NCBI GenBank assembly: GCA_963729605.1
Contig: CAVSNY010000007.1
Coordinates: 1,152,001 to 1,216,000, forward strand
Length of the DNA: 64,000 nucleotides
DNA from: an uncultured Gammaproteobacteria bacterium
GTDB taxonomy: Bacteria > Pseudomonadota > Gammaproteobacteria > DRLM01
Direction: 5' to 3'
Shown: piece by piece, positions 3,135 through 64,000 of the stretch
Layout of the letters: each line of letters starts with the position of its first letter
How positions within the stretch are numbered: position 1 is the first letter of the stretch
Notes under the pieces: generated by a model
Database searches by the model: none
Told to the model about the DNA's origin: nothing
What the model saw: the letters and a program-made list of their open reading frames with translations, nothing else
Program-made: the position numbers and the translations under genes

Positions 3135-5642
3135 CTAGTTGGGAATTAACGTTGCCCGTTGGGAGTTTGGTTCGCTCAGGCGCCAGCCCGATTCCTTGAG
3201 CCAGCGGGCCAGGGCCATCGCGGTCAGCGGCCGGCTGATGAAATAACCTTGCGCCATGTCGCAGCCCATCTCGATCAGGGTGTTCAGCACCGCTTGATTC
3301 TCGACGCCTTCGGCGACCACCCGCCGGCCCATGTTGTGGGCGAGGTCCACGGTGGAACGCACGATCACCATGTCTTCGTTGTTGTCGAGCATGTCGATGA
3401 CGAAGGATTTGTCGATCTTGATTTCGTCCACCGGCAACTGCTTTAAATAAATCAGCGAGGAGTAACCGGTGCCGAAGTCGTCGATGGCGAGGCCGACGCC
3501 CATCACGTCGAGTTGGGTGAGGGTGTCCATCGCCCGCAGCGGGTTGGCCATGATCGCGCTCTCGGTGATTTCAAACTCCAGCAGCTGCGGCGCCACCCCC
3601 CATTGCTGCATGGTCGCGGCGATCTTGCCGGCCAGCTGTTCGTCTTGCAGATGGCGCGCCGACAGATTGATGGCCATTCGCAATTGGAGTCCGGCCTTTT
3701 GCCAGAGGTGGATTTGATGCAGGGCCTCGTCGAGCACGAAGAAGGTGAGCGGCCGGATCAGCCCGGTGTGCTCGGCGAGCGGGATGAATTCATCGGGCAG
3801 CAGCAGCCCGCGTTGCGGATGATCCCAGCGCACCACCGCCTCCACCGCGCTGACCAGCCCGGTCTTGAGATCGATCTTCGGTTGATAGAACAACACCAGT
3901 TGTTTGTATTCGATGGCGTGGCGCAGCTCGCCGACCAGCGACAGGCGGCTGACGCTGTGCTGATCTTCCTTGGGATCGTAGAGGGCGAAGCCGGCGCTGG
4001 CGCGCTTGGCGACGTACATGGCCACGTCGGCGTGGCGCATCAGGGTCGCGCCGTCCTCGCCGTGCTCGGGATAGAGGGCGATGCCGACGCTGGCGCCGAC
4101 ATGGAAACTCTGCTCTTCCAAAAGGATGGGCTGTTCGAGGGCGGTGATGAGTTTGCGCGCGGCGCCGACCGCGTCGGCCTCGTTTTCGATGCCGGGCAGC
4201 AGCACGGCGAATTCATCGCCGCCGAGGCGGGCGATGGTGTCGGACTCGCGCAGCGCGCCGCGCATGCGTTGCGCCACCTGTTGCAGGACCAGGTCGCCGT
4301 AATGGTGGCCGAGGGTGTCGTTGATTTCCTTGAAACGGTCGAGGTCGGTGATGAGCAGCGCCAAAGGCGCGGCTTTGCGTTGCGCGGTGAGGATGGCATG
4401 CCGCAAGCGGTCTTGTAACAACAGACGGTTGGGCAGTTCGGTCAGGCCGTCGTGCAGGGCTTGATGTTCCAATTCGCGGTTGAGCGAGGCGAGTTCCCGG
4501 GTGCGTTTTATGACCCGCCGCTCCAGGTCTTCCTGGAGGGCCTTGAGTTCGGCCTCGGCCTGTTTGCGTTCGGTGATGTCGCGCATGATGCCGATGTAGA
4601 GCATGCCCTCGCTGCGCGGCAGTTCGCTGACCGCCATTTCCATCGGGAAGCTGTGCCCGTCCTTGTGGCGACCCACGGTTTCATGCGCCGCCAGGCGGGT
4701 GATCTCGTCGATCGAGGCGGCCGGTTCGCCATCTTCACGGCCGATGACCGGGCAGGCGTAGGCTTGTCCCAGCAGCAGGTTGAGATTTTCGCCGGCTATT
4801 TCCGCCTGGCTATAACCGAAAATCTGCTCCGCGGCGTGATTCATCGATTCGATATTGCCGCGCGCGTCGATGGTGACGATGCCGTCCACCATGTTATCCA
4901 TGATGGCGCGGATGCGCCGTTCCCGCACCGCGACCGCCTCGGCGTTGTTCACCAGTTTTTCGCGCATGCGTTCCAGGTCTTCGGCGAGACCGGCGATTTC
5001 GTAGATGCTGGAACGGACGCGCAAATGCCCCACCGTATCGTTGGCGGCGATGCGACGCGCCGCATCGCGCAACTGGCGCAAGGGCCGGGTCAATTGGGGT
5101 GTAATCACCGCCACCAGCAGCAAGGAAAGCGTGACGTAGCCGATGGCCAATAACACGCCGCGCTGGTAGGCCTGGTAGATCTGCGCCCGGGTCGCCGTTT
5201 CGTCGTAGCCCACCCGCAGGGTGGCGGCGCTCCGCAGCGACGGGTTGTGAAAGGGCACCCCGATGAAATAGACGGTGTTGGCGTGTTCTCCGAAATAAAA
5301 ATCTTCGTCGAACGTCTCGTTGCGGTTTTTATTGGCTACCGAGGCGATCTCGCCGCCGGTTTCGAGTATCACTTCGGCGTAGGCCAGACGGCCCGAGAAC
5401 ACCGCGTCGTCGAGCTGGGCGCGGATCTGTTCGGCATCGGCCTGTTCGGCGAGCCGTTCCGCCAGTTGCCGCGCGTCGTGGCGGACATAGTTGATGAATT
5501 GTTCCTTGTAACCCTCGGCGACGATGAACAACACGCCGCTGAACAAGAAGGGAATCAGCAGTAAATGAATGATGACCCCGCCGAGTATGATCCGGCCGGC
5601 GAAGCTGTGCAGAAAGGCCGCTAGTTTGCCCCGTTGCGCCAT
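3135..5642 (-). CDS. Membrane sensor diguanylate cyclase/phosphodiesterase (TM-HAMP-PAS-GGDEF-EAL)
   Basis: Two TM segments, HAMP, PAS, intact GGDEF, EAV and DDFGTGYSS. Confidence 0.93.
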   Translation of the reverse strand: MAQRGKLAAFLHSFAGRIILGGVIIHLLLIPFLFSGVLFIVAEGYKEQFINYVRHDARQLAERLAEQADAEQIRAQLDDAVFSGRLAYAEVILETGGEIASVANKNRNETFDEDFYFGEHANTVYFIGVPFHNPSLRSAATLRVGYDETATRAQIYQAYQRGVLLAIGYVTLSLLLVAVITPQLTRPLRQLRDAARRIAANDTVGHLRVRSSIYEIAGLAEDLERMREKLVNNAEAVAVRERRIRAIMDNMVDGIVTIDARGNIESMNHAAEQIFGYSQAEIAGENLNLLLGQAYACPVIGREDGEPAASIDEITRLAAHETVGRHKDGHSFPMEMAVSELPRSEGMLYIGIMRDITERKQAEAELKALQEDLERRVIKRTRELASLNRELEHQALHDGLTELPNRLLLQDRLRHAILTAQRKAAPLALLITDLDRFKEINDTLGHHYGDLVLQQVAQRMRGALRESDTIARLGGDEFAVLLPGIENEADAVGAARKLITALEQPILLEEQSFHVGASVGIALYPEHGEDGATLMRHADVAMYVAKRASAGFALYDPKEDQHSVSRLSLVGELRHAIEYKQLVLFYQPKIDLKTGLVSAVEAVVRWDHPQRGLLLPDEFIPLAEHTGLIRPLTFFVLDEALHQIHLWQKAGLQLRMAINLSARHLQDEQLAGKIAATMQQWGVAPQLLEFEITESAIMANPLRAMDTLTQLDVMGVGLAIDDFGTGYSSLIYLKQLPVDEIKIDKSFVIDMLDNNEDMVIVRSTVDLAHNMGRRVVAEGVENQAVLNTLIEMGCDMAQGYFISRPLTAMALARWLKESGWRLSEPNSQRATLIPN

Positions 5643-57886: not shown

Positions 57887-58051
57887 GCGATCGATCTGCT
57901 GAAGGCCTTCGTCAACATGGAAGACTTCCTGGCGAAAGACAACGGCCAGGAACAGCTGATCTGGAAGGTCGGCATCCACATGGTGCTGGTGCTCTCCGGC
58001 GTGTTGTTCGCGCTGATGGACCGCATGTCGGGAGAGAACAAGCACCACTGA
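57887..58051 (+). pseudogene. 3' fragment of a YqhA/UPF0114 membrane protein gene
   Basis: AIDLLKAFVN...LIWKVGIHMVLVLSGVLFALMDR resembles the family C-terminus; the N-terminal part is absent. Confidence 0.7.
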
Positions 58052-58079
58052 GCGGCGGCGTAGGCTGGCCGAGCGGCGC

Positions 58080-58364
58080 TCAATCGAAATCGAAGATCTC
58101 GCCGAGGAAGCCGCGCTTCTTCCGCTTGCCGTGATAGCCGTGATAATCGTCGTCGTAGTCACGCCGCTCGCGCGGACGTTCGGGCTGCTGCGGCGCCTGC
58201 TGTCGCGCGGGGCTCGGCGCAGCGTTCACGGTCGCGCGCTCGATCAGTTTGTCGAGCTCGCCGCGGTCCAGCCACACGCCGCGGCACTGCGGGCAATAGT
58301 CGACCTCGATACCTTGCCGGTCGGACATCGTCAACGTGACGTCTTTACATACAGGACACTGCAT
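58080..58364 (-). CDS. zf-TFIIB-type zinc-ribbon protein
   Basis: MQCPVC...IEVDYCPQCRGVWLDRGELDK...FLGEIFDFD; RBS GAGG. Confidence 0.9.
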   Translation of the reverse strand: MQCPVCKDVTLTMSDRQGIEVDYCPQCRGVWLDRGELDKLIERATVNAAPSPARQQAPQQPERPRERRDYDDDYHGYHGKRKKRGFLGEIFDFD

Positions 58365-58550
58365 ATTTCCACCTCGAAACATTGTGCGCCCGTTCGGGCG
58401 CGCTCGCGCAATCGATCATAGCACAGGCCTGCGTGGCCGCGGAGTCTTCGTTCGCCTGCGAGCGCCGCGTGGCTGCACTCCTAGCCTATCTTGCCAAAGC
58501 CATGCGGCGGAACGCCCTTTGGGCTTCCGCCTTACCGCGCTCTCCCAAGG

Positions 58551-58575
58551 GATAAATAAATCTGTCCCGGTTTTT
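58551..58575 (+). repeat. Repeat copy A, GATAAATAAATCTGTCCCGGTTTTT
   Basis: Identical to 60176-60200; inverted 21/22 match at 60064-60085. Confidence 0.95.
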
Positions 58576-58605
58576 TGTTGTTACCTATCTCCCCGACCGG
58601 TCATG

Positions 58606-58984
58606 TCACTTCTTGAGCTGCCGCGCCTCTTCAGGGACCTGAGTTATCGGAAGCAAAAGCGGCACCGAGAACTGAATCTTGTTGGTGGCCTGCTCTTTGT
58701 TTTCAGACTTGCCGCCAGCGCCGAGGTTAAACACGCTAGCTGCAACTCCGATTTTTGCGCTTGTGTTTGTACCTTCTTCCACTGTTAGTGCCACATCAAA
58801 GCTGACGATCCGCGCGAAGTTGTTTGTGCGGTTGTCCCAAGTGGCGTTCTCCCCGATTGAGGACGTGGTGCGCATTAGGCCGCCGGGATTCAAAGGCGCC
58901 GTGCTCAGCCGTTCGCTTCTGGGCTTCAACGACGCCCTCGACGATAGAAGCCAATGTTTCGGTTATGAACTGCTTAGGTTCCAT
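58606..58984 (-). CDS. Cassette gene, Trypco2-like small protein with one frameshift (~58892)
   Basis: MEPKQFITETLASIVEGVVEAQ joins ...VSFDVALTV...KIQFSVPLLLP in another frame; RBS GAGGAGG directly after the attC. Confidence 0.7.
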
Positions 58985-59000
58985 GCAACCTCCTCAAGAA

Positions 59001-59060
59001 ACCCAACGCCAAGCTAAGAGGCGCGACGACAGGAGTGTCCGCTTGAGCGCCGTGTTAGCT
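59001..59060 (-). mobile_element. Integron attC site (60 bp)
   Basis: Minus strand AGCTAAC-5-GCTCAAGC...TCTTAGC-5-GTTGGGT; the upstream gene's stop codon lies in the R'' box. Confidence 0.92.
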
Positions 59061-59828
59061 TACAATTTTTGCGATTTGCCACTGATTACCCTGAACGACA
59101 TAATTTGTTTTGCATTTGTTGCACTTTATCCGTAGACCCTGAGTCAACTCGCTTACCAAAATTGGTTTAATCGCTTTGCATTCCGGGCAACAGAAATCAA
59201 CAGCATTTAACGTAAAACACCATCCGCCATCTGGGTTTTCCGGAATATAAGTGGCATTACAATTGATATTAGGGCAGCATACTTCCTCAAGTTCGCTAAG
59301 GGCACTGGTACAGCATGTGATTTTTTCACCACACAAATTACAATCTATGGATACTGTTTTAGCAATGTTTGAGATTAGGGTTCCGCTTTCGACTCTTTCC
59401 AACTCAGAAATCACTGTATCCAAATATTCTCTACAAGCAGCATCCGCTTTCCTTGTTTCAATTTGTAAATGTAAAAAAGAACCAAGCGTATTGTAGTTTT
59501 TATTTATCCATGAGGAGGAAATTGCCTCATGGCGTCCAATTAAATTGAACTTTTTCGCTGGCTCTCCTGGTGATTCTTCTTCGCCAATACTTAATGTGTA
59601 TGATCTATCAGCATGAGGCTCAAGTTGGCAAAGTATTTTTATAGCTTTGTTTGGTTGCCACTTTTTAAATAAAAGCTTTGTCCCATACCGCTTAGAATAA
59701 AATTCCAATTTTTTATACACATGATACTCAATAGCCATACGAAGTTCTAAACAGGCATATATAACATCACTATCATTACCCGTAGATAATAATTTTTTGG
59801 CGTTCTTTAAATGTTCAGTGCGCATCAT
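59055..59828 (-). CDS. Cassette gene: HEPN-like helical domain with C-terminal double zinc ribbon
   Basis: AT-rich; YACLELRMAIE, YNTLGSFLH, then CNLC, CPNINC, CPEC and CNKC; bounded by GTTAGCT and AGCTAAC. Confidence 0.8.
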   Translation of the reverse strand: MMRTEHLKNAKKLLSTGNDSDVIYACLELRMAIEYHVYKKLEFYSKRYGTKLLFKKWQPNKAIKILCQLEPHADRSYTLSIGEEESPGEPAKKFNLIGRHEAISSSWINKNYNTLGSFLHLQIETRKADAACREYLDTVISELERVESGTLISNIAKTVSIDCNLCGEKITCCTSALSELEEVCCPNINCNATYIPENPDGGWCFTLNAVDFCCPECKAIKPILVSELTQGLRIKCNKCKTNYVVQGNQWQIAKIVS

Positions 59829-59835
59829 TGTATTA

Positions 59836-59881
59836 AGCTAACTTAAAGTAGACATCTTAATTGACGCCTTATAAGGCGTCA
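59836..59881 (-). mobile_element. attI-like site of integron unit 1
   Basis: TGTCTAC-5 nt-GTTAGCT, with the R box complementary to the cassette R''; perfect 20-bp palindrome at 59862-59881; lies between the intI stub and the first cassette. Confidence 0.8.
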
Positions 59882-59904
59882 TCACGTGTTCTAAATCTTT
59901 TCCC

Positions 59905-59933
59905 ATGGTAAAAGTACCCTGTATTATCAGCAA
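59905..59933 (-). promoter_or_regulatory. Candidate cassette promoter Pc
   Basis: Minus strand TTGCTG-17 nt-TACCAT pointing into attI. Confidence 0.6.
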
Positions 59934-59964
59934 GAAAATAAAATTTAGGGTGTTCTAATTAGAA

Positions 59965-60063
59965 ATGGCTAATACGGCATATCATTCACCCAAGCTGCTC
60001 GATTAGGTGCGGGCGAAGATTCGCCCCGAGCGCTACCGGTATTCGAAAAATTGGAGCACGGCG
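59965..60063 (+). pseudogene. intI: N-terminal stub of an integron integrase
   Basis: MANTAYHSPKLLD*VRAKIRPERY matches the IntI start PKLLDQVRxxIRxxHYS; divergent from the cassettes; ends at repeat copy B. Confidence 0.8.
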
Positions 60064-60200
60064 AAAAATCGGGACAGATTTATTTTATTCTCTCGTCAAT
60101 CACAAACTACTACGCATTTGGCACAGCCTTCTTACTATTTCTTCCACCTTGTCTACGAAATATACTTTCCAAAGAGATAAATAAATCTGTCCCGGTTTTT
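60064..60200. mobile_element. 137-bp segment bounded by inverted repeat copies B and C (MITE-like)
   Basis: AAAAATCGGGACAGATTTATTT ... AAATAAATCTGTCCCGGTTTTT. Confidence 0.75.
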
Positions 60201-60207
60201 CGTACAT

Positions 60208-60270
60208 CCTCAACGTAAAGTTGAGGAGCGCGCCATTTTTGGCGCGCTCCTCTCGAACGTAATGTTATGT
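60208..60270 (-). mobile_element. Integron attC site (63 bp)
   Basis: Minus strand ACATAAC-5-GTTCGAGA-GGAGCGCGCC/GGCGCGCT-CCTCAAC-5-GTTGAGG; the TIR gene stop lies in R''. Confidence 0.93.
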
Positions 60271-60999
60271 TCCAATTACCCCCTCCCTCTCTAGTACCCG
60301 CCTAATCTCTTCAAATACTGCCGAGATACGCCCTCTAGGAAATCTAATTTGAGACAAGCCAACGATATTCGTAAATTCTTGGCATCCTTCCTCAAGAAGT
60401 ATTATGGCTTTTCGTGGACCCAGCTTACCTTGAAATAGACCAACCTCATGAACCACGTTTTGTCGTGCATGGGTGGTGGTATCTGAATGCTGATCTTCGG
60501 CTGTCATGATAAGAAAAGCGAAACTAGCAGCATCCAACATATTCGAAATGCGCTCGAATGTGGCTATGCCAGCGACAGCCTCTCTATTAAACTCATCCCA
60601 TGGCAACGCTAAACGGTCAGTTAGGAAGTCTTTCAGTTCCCGCCAGATAGGTGACCGGCCATGCCCAATAAAAACACGAGAACCGAGATTTCTATTTACA
60701 AAAGCACAAACCCCAATTCTTTCAATTTCGGATACATAATCTTCTAATAGACGAGCTCGTTTCGTTAGCTCTTCGGTCGCATTTATATTGTCTGGTATCT
60801 GCTTTGGATAGAGTGAGATTGGCACCTCGTGGCTCACGCCGTAGATTTTTTTCAAGTGTGACCCTACTGCGCCACTCCACATCTTGAGTTGACCTATCTT
60901 TATGTCGCCCTTCGCTAACATGAGCTTTGCGCATTCTATAAAATGTCGCAATATAGTTAACAGTGCGGTTTCTTGTGGGCTTGATGATTCCACCATCAC
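60265..60999 (-). CDS. Cassette gene with a C-terminal CAP12/Pycsar-type TIR domain
   Basis: VFIGHGRS, FAFLIMTAED and ARQNVVHEVGLFQGKLG; AT-rich; followed by attC. Confidence 0.9.
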   Translation of the reverse strand: MMVESSSPQETALLTILRHFIECAKLMLAKGDIKIGQLKMWSGAVGSHLKKIYGVSHEVPISLYPKQIPDNINATEELTKRARLLEDYVSEIERIGVCAFVNRNLGSRVFIGHGRSPIWRELKDFLTDRLALPWDEFNREAVAGIATFERISNMLDAASFAFLIMTAEDQHSDTTTHARQNVVHEVGLFQGKLGPRKAIILLEEGCQEFTNIVGLSQIRFPRGRISAVFEEIRRVLEREGVIGT

Positions 61000-61007
61000 T
61001 CCTTATT

Positions 61008-61052
61008 GAAGAACATGTATTAGACACCCTAATTAGCGTCTTTCTTTACGCC
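61008..61052 (-). mobile_element. Second attI-like site
   Basis: TGTCTAA-5 nt-GTT; aligns without gaps to 59836-59880 (AAC-N6-TAGACA-N3-TAATT-RRCGYCTT-N6-CGYCA). Confidence 0.6.
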
Positions 61053-61134
61053 AGTGTGGTGTGTAATTCCAGCATCGTCAATATGGCGCAAGGGTCTATA
61101 AGAAATGGCCAGTTTTTATGCGGCCCAGAAAGTA

Positions 61135-64000
61135 TTACACCGCCTCGTTGCCCGAGACCGTCCAAGTATCTTTGCGACAAACATAGCGCATCGCGCAATA
61201 ACCGCAGGTGCGATCGTCGCCCCAGGCCGGCAGCGGGGCGCCGGCGCTGATGTGGTCCAATAATGTAGCTAGCCGTTCGCCGTTGGCCGCCGCGAGGACG
61301 GCGAGGGCGTCGCCTTCGAGCGCGCCGTGGCTTTTGACCCGTTGGTCGAGGCCGAGATATTCGACGCGTTGCACGGGGTCGGGCATGAGCAGCGCGTAAA
61401 AAGGTAATTGCACGGCCTCGCCACTTTCCACGTCGGCGCTGCCAGCCATGATGCCGGTTTTGTAATCGATCAGCGCGACGCCGTCCGCATTGTGATCGAC
61501 GCGATCGAGACGCCCGGTGAGTGTCCAGCGGTCTTGATAACGTTGCTCGGTCTTCACTTCCACCGCGCCGACCCGCCATTCCCGTTGCCGTTCGATCTGC
61601 CAATCGACGTACTCGTCTATGCGCTCCAGCCAGCGTTGCAGCCAGCCGCGATGTACGAAGTTGTCTTCGAGGTCTTGCGCGAATACGGCGCGCGAGATTT
61701 CTTCGAGCGCGGCGACGGCCTCGCCGCGATTGGCGACGGTGAGCGGCGCGGCGTAAGGGCCGGGATAACCGGGCGCGCCGCCGTGAAAGGCCTGCAACGC
61801 TAAATGCACGCGTTCGCCGTAATCGGATTTTTCGAGGGCCTCGCGCACTACCTCCGGCGCACTGAGCCGCAGGCCGCGCGCGGCGAAGAATTGATAAGGA
61901 CAGTCCACCAGTTGTTGATAGGCACTGGCGGAGATTTTTTCCGGCAACATCTCCGCGGTCAGCGCCGGTGCGGGGCGGGTCTTCGGCGTGGGCAATTCGC
62001 GGGTGTCGGCGCGGAAGACTTGCGCCATCGGCTCGTCGACTAACGCGGCGAGTTGCGTGTCGGCGAGATCGTCGCCATAGGCCAGTTGATGAAAGCCGCT
62101 GATTATTTCCAGCCAGGGGCTGGGCAGGCGTTCTTCGCCGTTGTCTTCGCGCAGCAGCGTCAGCAATACCTGCGGCGCGCATTCGAGCAAGCGGCGGAAA
62201 TGATAAAACCGCTGGACGTAGCGTTCCCGCGAGGCGGGCAGGCCCAACTCGCGGCGCACCGCGTCGTTGAAAAACGGCGAGGGTTCGCCATTGCCGGGCA
62301 GGTGTTCGGCGTTGGCGCCGGCGATGATCAGCGCATCGCAGGTCGTCAACGCGCTTTGTTCCAGACTCAATAAAAATACCGCGGACGGCGCGGCGGGCGG
62401 CTGAAAGTTGTAGCGTTCCAAGGTGCGGCCCAGCCAGGTGCGGAAGTCGAGCCAGGTCATGGGCAGGGTGCGCCCGTGCAACGCGGCGCGCATCGCCGCC
62501 AGTTCTTGCAACACGCGCTCGCCGGCGGCGTCGCGCGAGAAGGCCTCCCGCATGCCCAGCGCTTGCAGGCTGGCTTCGAGCGCGTCGAGCAGACGGAGCG
62601 GCGCGTGGCGGTAGGGATCGCGCACGAAGGGCAGCAGCGGTTTGGCGGCGGCCTCCGCCTCGTTCAAGAGGTGTTCGACCGCGAAGCCCATGGCCTTGGA
62701 CAAGCGCGCGCGGCGGAAGGCGAGGTGGGTGCGATAACGTTGCAGGCCACGGCCGACGTTTTCGTGGATCACGATGTCCTGTTCGAAGCGATGCACCGCC
62801 GTCAGCCGCGCCGCGCGGTCTTGCCCGGGAAACACGAACGATGACTTGAGCAGATCGGTGAACGGTTGATAGGCGAAATCCTCTTCGAGGGTTTCTAGCC
62901 AGCGTTCGAGCGCCGCCGCCGCCGCGGTGGTGGAGAGGGCCCAGCCCGCGGCGTCGTGCAGGTTGACGTCGGCGCGTTCCAGCAAGGCGCGCAGCCGCCG
63001 CGCCAAGCGGCGGTCTTCGGTGACGATGCCGATGCGACGGCGGCCTTCCAGCAGCCAGCGCCGTATTTGAACGTCGATGGCGCGCGCCTCGTCCTCGGCG
63101 CCGCGCGCGCGGAATATTTTCAAGCGGTCCGCCGCGGGGCTGGCGGGAAACTCGCGGGCCCAGCGTTGCGCGCGCGCGGCCAGCAGTTGCTCATCGCCGG
63201 CGGGGGGCGCGAGTGCGCGCGGCGCGAATGCCGTATCGAGAAAACGGCTGAAGGGCGGCGCGGCGGACGGTTCGGCGGCGGCCGCGTTGGCGAAGAGCTT
63301 GCCGACCTGCGCGGGGTGGGGCAGATCATCGGCGCGGTTCGCGACAGGCGCGTGTTCGCCGTGGACGATGACGGTGAGTTCGCCGCGCTGCATCAAGGTG
63401 CGCGCCCACTGGTATTCCGCGGCGCTGAGCTGGCTATAACCCGCGAGGTAGAGCGTGTCGGATATGGGCTGTGCGAGGGAGCGGTCCAGCTGGGCGAGAT
63501 AGGCGGTCTCCGGATCGCCGCGATTTTCTTCGCGCAACTGGCGGTGCCAGGCCCGCCACAAAGTGTGAACGAGGCGCGCCTCGTCGCCGAGGGCGGCGGG
63601 CGATGTATTCAAACCGTAGGCCGTACGCAGACGGGTGAGAAAGGGGGTTATTTCGTCGGGCAATTCGACCCGGTGCAGGGTCAGCTCGGCGAATAAACGC
63701 GCGAGGTCGGCGGCCAGCCGCCAGGGATCGCCGTCGCCGAAGAGGGCGCGGTGCTGTTGCAGGCTTTCCACCAGCAGCAGTTCCCGCGCCTGCGGCGAGA
63801 GCGGGGCGGCGCCGCCGTGGCGGGCGGCCCATAGTCGCAGGCTGAGGATTTGCGGTCCCAGCAAGGCCTGCACGCCGTGGCGCGCGGCGGCGGCGAGCAG
63901 CCGGCGGCGCAGCCGCGCCGCGGCCTGGGGGTCGGGGAGCAGCACCGCGCACCGGCTGAGATCGGGCAGGGCGCGGCGCTGGCGGGTGATGATGAGGTCG
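61135..64000 (-). CDS. addB: AddB-like double-strand-break repair protein with a PD-(D/E)XK nuclease (5' end outside the window)
   Basis: SASAYQQLVDCPYQFFA, GRLDRVD, IDYKTG, QLPFYA and C-terminal CGYC...C Fe-S cysteines. Confidence 0.85.
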   Translation of the reverse strand, partial: DLIITRQRRALPDLSRCAVLLPDPQAAARLRRRLLAAAARHGVQALLGPQILSLRLWAARHGGAAPLSPQARELLLVESLQQHRALFGDGDPWRLAADLARLFAELTLHRVELPDEITPFLTRLRTAYGLNTSPAALGDEARLVHTLWRAWHRQLREENRGDPETAYLAQLDRSLAQPISDTLYLAGYSQLSAAEYQWARTLMQRGELTVIVHGEHAPVANRADDLPHPAQVGKLFANAAAAEPSAAPPFSRFLDTAFAPRALAPPAGDEQLLAARAQRWAREFPASPAADRLKIFRARGAEDEARAIDVQIRRWLLEGRRRIGIVTEDRRLARRLRALLERADVNLHDAAGWALSTTAAAAALERWLETLEEDFAYQPFTDLLKSSFVFPGQDRAARLTAVHRFEQDIVIHENVGRGLQRYRTHLAFRRARLSKAMGFAVEHLLNEAEAAAKPLLPFVRDPYRHAPLRLLDALEASLQALGMREAFSRDAAGERVLQELAAMRAALHGRTLPMTWLDFRTWLGRTLERYNFQPPAAPSAVFLLSLEQSALTTCDALIIAGANAEHLPGNGEPSPFFNDAVRRELGLPASRERYVQRFYHFRRLLECAPQVLLTLLREDNGEERLPSPWLEIISGFHQLAYGDDLADTQLAALVDEPMAQVFRADTRELPTPKTRPAPALTAEMLPEKISASAYQQLVDCPYQFFAARGLRLSAPEVVREALEKSDYGERVHLALQAFHGGAPGYPGPYAAPLTVANRGEAVAALEEISRAVFAQDLEDNFVHRGWLQRWLERIDEYVDWQIERQREWRVGAVEVKTEQRYQDRWTLTGRLDRVDHNADGVALIDYKTGIMAGSADVESGEAVQLPFYALLMPDPVQRVEYLGLDQRVKSHGALEGDALAVLAAANGERLATLLDHISAGAPLPAWGDDRTCGYCAMRYVCRKDTWTVSGNEAV

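Follow-up and report, generated by a model that had tools for sequence, protein, structure and literature searches.

TIRtron-derived mini-elements, probably fossil, at the joints of decayed integron modules in an uncultured gammaproteobacterium

Three short repeats, A, B and C, lie at breakpoints of integron DNA in a 64,000-nucleotide stretch (here 'the window'; positions are counted from its first letter) of the chromosome of an uncultured gammaproteobacterium of the DRLM01 lineage (GenBank assembly GCA_963729605.1, contig CAVSNY010000007.1, positions 1,152,001 to 1,216,000). The locus raises the question of whether such repeats provide a route for moving gene cassettes that does not depend on the integron integrase, IntI; the original prediction, made from the sequence alone, was that a trans-acting HUH transposase may capture expressed cassette modules. 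By their sequence, the repeats are the terminal inverted repeats of an internally deleted derivative of the TIRtron, a kind of element that is already known, and they probably represent the ends of dead derivatives at the joints of a decayed and multiplied integron system. Mobilisation of cassettes by these repeats is not shown.

Repeats A, B and C in the window

A repeat search of the window recovered A and C as a direct repeat (58540-58578 and 60165-60203; 39 nt, 90% identity), B and C as an inverted repeat (60062-60085 and 60179-60202; 24 nt, 96% complementary, spacing 93 nt) and A and B as an inverted repeat (58554-58575 and 60064-60085; 22 nt, 95%, spacing 1488 nt). The 16-mer AAATAAATCTGTCCCG has four matches in the window at ≤3 mismatches, three of them exact at the positions claimed for A, B and C, against a shuffle expectation of 0.31, and a count of four was reached by none of 100 shuffles. 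In the whole genome 18 matches were found at ≤2 mismatches, and none with a reversed control. The three copies are thus present where they had been placed, far above chance.

Their distances from integron parts agree largely with those first given. A ends 28 nt from the stop codon (58606) of the last cassette open reading frame (ORF), for a claimed distance of about 30 bp, and the distance between the end of C and the R′ core in the adjoining TIR-domain cassette's attC site is 5-7 nt (claimed: 7 bp). B, said to truncate intI after about 33 codons, does abut an intI-like stub, but only ~16-25 codons are recognisable and these include an in-frame TAG. The repeats do lie at breakpoints but are of unequal standing: a single element has B as its left and C as its right end, while A is a fragment of another copy.

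60062-60202, + strand: complete mini-element of 141 bp, with left inverted repeat B (60062-60085) and right inverted repeat C (60179-60202)
58540-58578, + strand: copy A, a 39-nt right-end remnant with its terminus facing right, matching positions 141-177 of a 177-bp full copy

The complete element folds into a single long hairpin (z -6.24) and has an internal deletion of 31-39 nt relative to the usual form of 159-177 bp. For comparison with metagenomes, assembled contigs of four runs (X1-X4) were used, the best run holding 0.17 of the sampled words of the stretch; X1 contigs contain the 31-32 nt absent from the window element.

Parentage in TIRtrons

TIRtrons are small elements encoding a tyrosine (Y1/HUH) transposase associated with terminal inverted repeats, TIRYT (Di Nocera et al. 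2013, PMC3733652). On either side of a TIRYT gene lies a long terminal inverted repeat, and these repeats have the motif GGGGWSAS in common (PMC3733652, PMC6006769). The proteins correspond to TnpA-Y1 subclass 2.1, with a C-terminal helix-turn-helix extension and no repetitive extragenic palindromic (REP) hairpins (Quentin et al. 2018, PMC6006769), and to group 1 of the REP-associated tyrosine transposases (RAYTs) of Bertels et al. 2017 (PMC5581495).

The terminal inverted repeat of the mini-element reads approximately AAAAAYYGGGACAGATTTATTT. A 21-nt end pattern, scanned over one genome per species, matched at least 120 stretches in many phyla, where ~4 would be expected by chance (our own estimate from the size of the collection). 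Among the matches listed, most are compact inverted doublets, and 13 are units of 750-810 bp (~770 bp) bounded by inverted copies of the same repeats. Twelve of these 13 units encode a protein of 226-256 aa with HVHL (HUH) and Y...NP motifs, and the remaining one (L114) has an unrelated 137-aa ORF instead. The two unit proteins that were scanned match Pfam Y1_Tnp (PF01797) at 1.2e-13 and 8.1e-11 and reach 73-76 bits on NCBIfam NF047646 (REP_Tyr_transpos), just below its cut-off of 80. The original prediction had linked such repeats to Y1/HUH transposases of RAYT type, and the proteins of the PF01797 type in 12 of 13 bounded units confirm this link. The ends of full units elsewhere read ...AAAAAGGGGACAGATTTATT, with the motif stretch GGGGACAG; the window copies read CGGGACAG, which matches 7 of the 8 positions of GGGGWSAS.

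A tblastn search of this genome with a TIRYT protein gave 57-71% identity over 21-25 aa inside three mini-element copies, in each case to the C-terminal tail (residues 202-226):

C7:1063806-68: TIRYT tail within a mini-element
C7:1033336-410: TIRYT tail within a mini-element
C7:325676-738: TIRYT tail within a mini-element

Because the local copies retain only the last 21-25 TIRYT codons, they are identified as internally deleted, non-autonomous TIRtron derivatives. No intact TIRYT gene was found by tblastn in the assembly (94.5% complete), which contains only YafM-type RAYTs (24% identity) and C-terminal remnants; for the cognate transposase supposed to act in trans, no intact counterpart was found there. 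A PDB sequence search with a TIRYT returned 0 matches at E up to 0.01.

The family elsewhere shares with published TIRtrons a Y1/HUH protein of ~230 aa with a C-terminal extension, flanking repeats of the GGGGWSAS type (GGGGACAG) rather than REP hairpins, solo and doublet copies of the repeats dispersed in genomes, and a wide, patchy host range. The local copies differ in being one specific, internally deleted form, confined to integron-derived islands and fixed in orientation. Figure 9 and the supplements of PMC3733652 (terminal repeat sequences) aside, the restriction of the element to remnants of integrons, in tandem modules, is apparently unpublished: the word 'integron' has 0 occurrences in PMC5581495 and PMC6006769, the papers listed for RAYTs together with integrons showed no relevant link by title or abstract, and the 14-mer of the repeat was met only in unrelated papers.

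Mini-element copies across the genome

Copies were defined by aligning all genomic matches with their flanks, which resolved two end types of one element: the left end continues ...tattctctcgtcaatcacaaactactacgc and the right end is preceded by ...tgtctacgaaagatactctccaaagggat. The genome holds seven full copies (141-177 bp) and four remnants.

Window 60062-60202: full copy
C7:325606-325778: full copy
C7:326838-326996: full copy
C7:409349-409521: full copy
C7:409843-409990: full copy
C7:1033305-1033481: full copy
C7:1063765-1063938: full copy
Window 58540-58578: remnant, copy A
C7:327474-327499: remnant
C5:232671-232760: remnant
~C5:230.2 kb: remnant, 14-nt left tip

All 11 lie in cassette islands and all 11 are antiparallel to the cassette genes. 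Thirteen of the 16 sites of the 14-mer core (≤1 mismatch) fall within the low-G+C 13.5% of the genome (binomial 1.8e-9); counted by locus, 6 of 9 are in low-G+C DNA (3.5e-4), the window locus being scored as a miss as A is on the boundary. Replication-strand bias was considered as the cause of the fixed orientation and rejected, since the five C7 islands share one stretch of rising GC skew (one replichore) but face both ways.

The mini-element is frequently found between the 3′ end of one cassette and the next attI module, on the intI side of the latter. Two such modules, P and R3, recur in the genome (see below), and the left end of the element abuts their intI side at ~143, ~165 (twice) and ~226 in P and at ~58 in R3; in a related genome, G003, it abuts an attI module at ~62. 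Units of an attI module, one to three cassettes and a mini-element stand in tandem: C7:325.6-328.5 kb has three in a row, and the window has two. Mini-element copies are only 78-93% alike, so the insertion events are old; copies of module P are 85-94% alike, except for a divergent copy on C2 (69-79%). Target-site duplications were sought at the seven full copies and none was found.

Inside the intI stub of the window, at 60046-60055, a ~9-nt tip of the element's left end (aaaaattgg) stands alone at a junction. This tip and the 14-nt tip at ~C5:230.2 kb look like footprints of earlier copies lost by deletion.

Integron parts of the window

The island (~58.95-61.2 kb) has 33-46% G+C, compared with 60-73% in flanking DNA, and contains or adjoins the following features besides the mini-elements.

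58457-58543, + strand: module R1, a doublet of GTAG-type REP hairpins, truncated on the right where A begins; blastn copies elsewhere in the genome
58580-58585, - strand: R′′-like GGTAAC plus AACA, directly beside A; all that remains of the terminal attC (10-nt match, weak)
58606-58984, - strand: last cassette, with overlapping ORFs 58796-58984 (62 aa, ribosome-binding site and ATG) and 58606-58929 (107 aa)
59005-59054, - strand: attC of the 257-aa cassette, R′′ AGCTAAC ... R′ CTTAGCT
59055-59828, - strand: ORF of the 257-aa cassette, no family match
59837-59988, - strand: module P, attI-type site, crossover core G↓TTAGCT at 59836-59842 (arrow, crossover), just upstream of the 257-aa ORF
59989-60062, + strand: intI stub, ~25 codons, in-frame TAG at 60004-60006, 4-nt length difference from the C7:412 kb copy
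60207-60268, - strand: attC of the TIR-domain cassette, crossover 60212-60214, hairpin z -6.4
60265-60999, - strand: TIR-domain cassette protein, 244 aa, CAP12/Pycsar effector-type TIR (PF10137, 1.5e-21)
61012-61172, - strand: module R3, attI-type site, crossover 61012-61014, outer part overlapping the last codons of a 936-aa nuclease-helicase-like ORF

Module P taken with the intI stub spans 59837-60062. Six further copies of P are present in the genome, one of which runs directly into an IntI-like pseudogene (C7:412215-412467; model positions 1-45 at E 4e-10 and 94-135 at E 3.9e-8). This pseudogene has a stop codon and an internal deletion, and its fragments are all that was found in the genome of intI, no match anywhere in it exceeding the TIGR02249 cut-off. 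The stub DNA is 88% identical to the start of the pseudogene, and its product aligns with the N-terminus of an integron integrase (LLDQVRAKIRPERY / LLDEVRERIRFKHY; 8/14 identical, E 0.001 in a single comparison).

R3 also has six further copies, giving 7 P and 7 R3 modules in all, and contigs of X4 and X3 diverge from the window within it, at 61016. In the congener G001 an R3-like site (79% similar) lies ~120 nt upstream of an intact IntI gene (484.6 bits), so that both module types occur next to intI, P as a copy continuous with the pseudogene. R3 and P share the core G(A/G)CG(C/T)CAATTAGG(G/A)TGTCTA...G↓TTAG. The R3-like site in G001 and this common core indicate that the island holds two attI-type sites. 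The A-B segment had been said to enclose an intI stub, the cassette promoter Pc, attI and two cassettes; the stub, the attI-type site P and the cassettes are there, but no sigma-70-like promoter was found on the cassette (minus) strand of the attI region and P, which leaves Pc unsupported.

The TIR-domain cassette was recovered at ~93-99% identity, in other contexts, in contigs of X2, X3 and X4 (three runs from three studies). These contigs cover 60211-61016 and diverge at 60211/60212 and 61016, the predicted crossover points; these boundaries make the gene of the TIR-domain protein a genuine cassette in circulation. For the 257-aa and Trypco2-like cassettes no cover was found in contigs of the four runs. 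The latter name refers to the last cassette, which has a weak match to Trypco2 (PF19631, E 0.01, below cut-off) and whose two overlapping ORFs are probably one frameshifted gene. The attC site at 59005-59054 folds no better than shuffles (z -0.36), and similar sequences occur at four places in G001 and in X3 contigs. Cassettes at this locus are of defence type (the CAP12/Pycsar-type TIR domain) or unassigned in function, not drug-resistance determinants.

The outer part of R3 (61126-61172) supplies the stop codon of the 936-aa ORF (61135-63945, - strand) and the dozen codons before it, and recurs at C7:328440-328487, adjoining unrelated DNA. A remnant of the integron platform seems to have replaced the original 3′ end of this gene, also in G001. 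At C5:231674-232447 (- strand) another 257-aa ORF, transposase-like by eye, lies directly downstream of a P attI module.

The A-B segment and the A junction

Of the two copies, A represents a right end and B a left one, and the outer faces of both point into the 1.5-kb segment between them, so the segment lies between two elements and not inside one. The left end belonging to A is deleted, and a composite would need that lost end together with C. The segment also differs from a composite bounded by transposable elements of the miniature inverted-repeat kind (MITEs) in that A is 39 nt long without a left end and the outer flanks have no target duplication. A second copy of the segment's interior (58579-60061) exists neither in this genome nor in 11 other genomes of the order, and only the P attI module and an attC-like piece from it recur elsewhere. 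With its ends inside out, one of them incomplete, and its interior single, A-B does not behave as the mobile unit that had been proposed, and capture of expressed cassette modules by an HUH transposase has the standing of a hypothesis. Two apparent joints in X1 contigs (58574>60063 and 58576>60065) were set aside as evidence of A-B junctions, their sides measuring 21-23 nt in a repeat-rich metagenome.

The congener G001 is syntenic with the window up to 57898 and again from 60996, with 1.8 kb of different low-GC DNA between. Its locus reads R3, another cassette, an R′′-like GGCTAACAACA, ~45 nt, and R1 with its full palindrome, and has no mini-element. In the window, GGTAACAACA is followed directly by A and then by R1, cut within its terminal palindrome. 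The simplest reading of the A junction, we infer from a motif of only 10 nt common to G001, would be insertion in situ followed by deletion: a mini-element copy would have inserted into the terminal attC remnant, and a deletion would then have taken the left 138 nt of that copy plus the adjoining ~45 nt, leaving A.

Non-synteny from 57898 places the start of the variable region there and not at copy A. A Zn-ribbon (TFIIB-type) gene and its surroundings at 57898-58457 (62-66% G+C) are non-syntenic with G001, in which part of this DNA lies on another contig.

Intact IntI genes are present in G001, G002 and G004, among them:

G001:C50:447-1391: intact IntI
G001:C15:10011-10952: intact IntI
G002:C23:3044-3985: intact IntI

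As two congeners retain an intact IntI, this integrase can still drive the turnover of cassettes in the genus.

Origin of the arrangement

The mini-elements are old and probably inert. As no intact TIRYT gene was found and the copies have diverged to the extent given above, the arrangement is most likely fossil. Long ago, copies would have entered cassette arrays belonging to a chromosomal integron system in decay. The complete copy bounded by B and C now separates a one-cassette array (R3 attI and the TIR cassette) from P attI, the intI stub and two cassettes, and a second copy would have landed in the terminal attC, later losing all but the 39 nt of A. The loss of intI and attC parts would be due to insertion and to later deletion or recombination, beside a copy or between two of them, which would be why the repeats mark breakpoints. 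The identity of the element, its set of copies, the integron parts, orientation and age come from the observations, whereas the succession of insertions and deletions, and the way in which the deletions came about, are a reconstruction.

Several facts weigh against a fossil. Neither a target-site duplication nor an empty site was found for any complete copy, so that transposition of the derivative itself can only be inferred. The TIRYT gene could be absent from the assembly alone, given its 94.5% completeness. Antiparallel orientation in 11 of 11 cases, although islands point both ways within one replichore, is not expected of random old insertions, and the meeting of the left end with the intI side of attI at ~5 positions looks like more than neutral decay. 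Fixed orientation and this recurrent junction are the facts least well explained by fossil elements.

On a rival account, units of 'mini-element, cassette(s), attI stub, mini-element' would have been duplicated or relocated as blocks without IntI. A TIRYT could have worked in trans on the outer ends of two copies in direct orientation, or copies could have undergone homologous recombination or unequal crossing-over with one another, the re-integration of a one-copy circle included. Such shuffling is unlikely, although it draws on the tandem units at C7:325.6-328.5 kb and in the window, on an orientation relative to cassettes that is the same whichever way the island faces, on the presence of 7 P and 7 R3 modules without any intact intI found, and on two loci at C5:230 kb and C5:232 kb that have the same P/left-end junction but head different genes; MITE-flanked integrons are also known (PMC3934969). 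No module was found twice with the same cassettes, however, and junction positions vary between units, A has no left end, target duplications were not seen and the copies are old. The order R′′-AACA...R1 common to G001, a weak 10-nt match, further suggests that the parent of A was inserted in situ.

It is similarly doubtful that TIRtron mini-elements and attI stubs form repeating modules of attI, cassette and mini-element, multiplied or re-sited as blocks through their ends or by recombination. If they do, the Y1/HUH family would have given cassettes IntI-independent packaging, with an attI of their own, and movement, and the co-orientation of all 11 copies would reflect module linkage and not chance. 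If modules moved as blocks, a single-strand (HUH) route would join the few ways known for relocating cassettes independently of IntI. If modules did not move, the locus gives a clear picture of chromosomal integron decay, with intI lost, attI stubs multiplied, and foreign mini-elements and REP doublets at the joints. The mobility of TIRYT elements and their terminal repeats is so far hypothetical, and this lineage, with seven full copies, four remnants and datable junctions, offers a compact natural test set.

The repeat in other genomes

Matches to the 141-bp element were found in 7 of 41 genomes, this one included, and full copies occur only here and in G003. Ten other genomes were chosen for several copies of the repeat, and in this picked, taxonomically skewed set IntI was above cut-off in 8. 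Physical linkage of the repeat to an integron is clear only in one of the genomes examined, G041 (a Pelobacter-labelled metagenome-assembled genome), where 6 of 7 sites, two full TIRYT units included, are found 3.7-8.3 kb downstream of intI inside the array. In G042, doublets on the intI contig sit between housekeeping genes; G043, G046 and G049 have no repeat near intI, and the few nearby sites in G047 are at about chance level. Among the 120 stretches in the matches listed (≤8 kb each) there was no strong IntI match and there were three weak ones (30-37% identity). Elsewhere the repeat mostly forms ordinary intergenic doublets away from intI. The predicted enrichment near attC, attI or intI therefore holds in this genome, with its integron-derived islands, but not in most other genomes examined, and the integron link of the repeat is not general.

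In the G041 array, downstream of a cassette attC (L179, on contig C10, ~5080-5630), a full TIRYT unit interrupts a sequence in which the 5′ part of a group II intron seems, by eye, to be present; this array also holds an IS3-like ORF and a second, different Y1-like ORF.

These distributions bear on the idea that a single-strand-specific Y1 transposase prefers the DNA of attC and attI, rich in hairpins and often single-stranded, in one orientation relative to the recombining strand, which would make the elements specialists of integron arrays like IS1111-attC elements or group IIC-attC introns. In this genome each copy does have an attC core, the stop codon of a cassette or an attI module at a distance of a few to ~30 nt, all 11 share one orientation, and the G041 sites and the frequency of IntI in the picked, non-random genomes point the same way. 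The offsets read from the sequences vary, however (R′′ + 4 nt, R′′ + 10 nt, R′ + 7 nt, 5 nt after a stop codon), and the housekeeping location of the G042 doublets, the lack of repeats near intI in G043, G046 and G049, the chance level in G047 and the 0 of 120 listed stretches with strong IntI make targeted insertion a quite improbable account. The element ends were also considered as mimics of attC cores for IntI and rejected: GTT is found only in the right end, the left end is mostly AAT, and there is otherwise no likeness to RYYYAAC/GTTRRRY.

Chance similarity or an assembly artefact, for which only the low complexity of the A/T runs speaks, can be dismissed given the shuffles (0/100), the reversed control (0) and the same element in a congener and in metagenome contigs.

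Comparison with known integron-associated elements

Small inverted-repeat elements bracketing integron DNA are known from MITE-flanked integrons and from integron mobilisation units. A pair of 439-bp MITEs surrounds a Tn402-like integron in Acinetobacter (PMC3934969) and, as here, small inverted-repeat elements truncate an integron and bracket attI and cassettes; the published case involves two complete identical MITEs of DDE type with target duplications, on plasmids and with resistance cassettes. The present locus instead has one complete copy and a 39-nt remnant, without duplication, of Y1-type parentage, chromosomal and old.

Cury et al. in 2016 reportedly described integron remnants as clusters of attC sites lacking an integrase (CALIN) and as the In0 type. 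The window shares with these its cassettes with attC and its remnants of attI, set in a genome that yielded no working integrase. It differs in its many attI-stub modules (7 P, 7 R3), each heading one to three cassettes, arranged in tandem with transposon-derived spacers.

IS1111-attC elements and group IIC-attC introns are preferentially located inside cassette arrays, in one orientation and at a fixed insertion position in attC. The mini-elements resemble them in occupying cassette arrays in one orientation, but they are inserted at varying positions, and most other genomes examined do not show the association.

The REP/RAYT system of the genome

The Y1 genes of this genome are four YafM-like RAYT genes or gene fragments. 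A complete one lies at the very start of a contig (C7:5-565; 203 bits on NF047646), followed downstream by a GTAG-tagged hairpin and then a compact doublet of a GGGACAG-type repeat, and it has three paralogous matches (C7:1121447, C7:1122019 and C3:193949). Module R1, considered as a long attC, was rejected as such in favour of a GTAG-type REP doublet, the repeat type found beside these genes (the hairpin at C7:5-565).

The arms A, B and C are not self-complementary and have no GTAG, and so differ from classical GTAG-type REPs. In REPIN/RAYT systems a single-copy Y1 transposase is thought to spread REPINs (REP doublets forming hairpins), which are inverted and non-autonomous (Bertels and Rainey 2011, PMC3116915), and compact doublets of the A/B/C-type repeat in other genomes resemble them. 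Here, by contrast, the arm is not itself a palindrome, and R1 and the four RAYT genes constitute a separate system.

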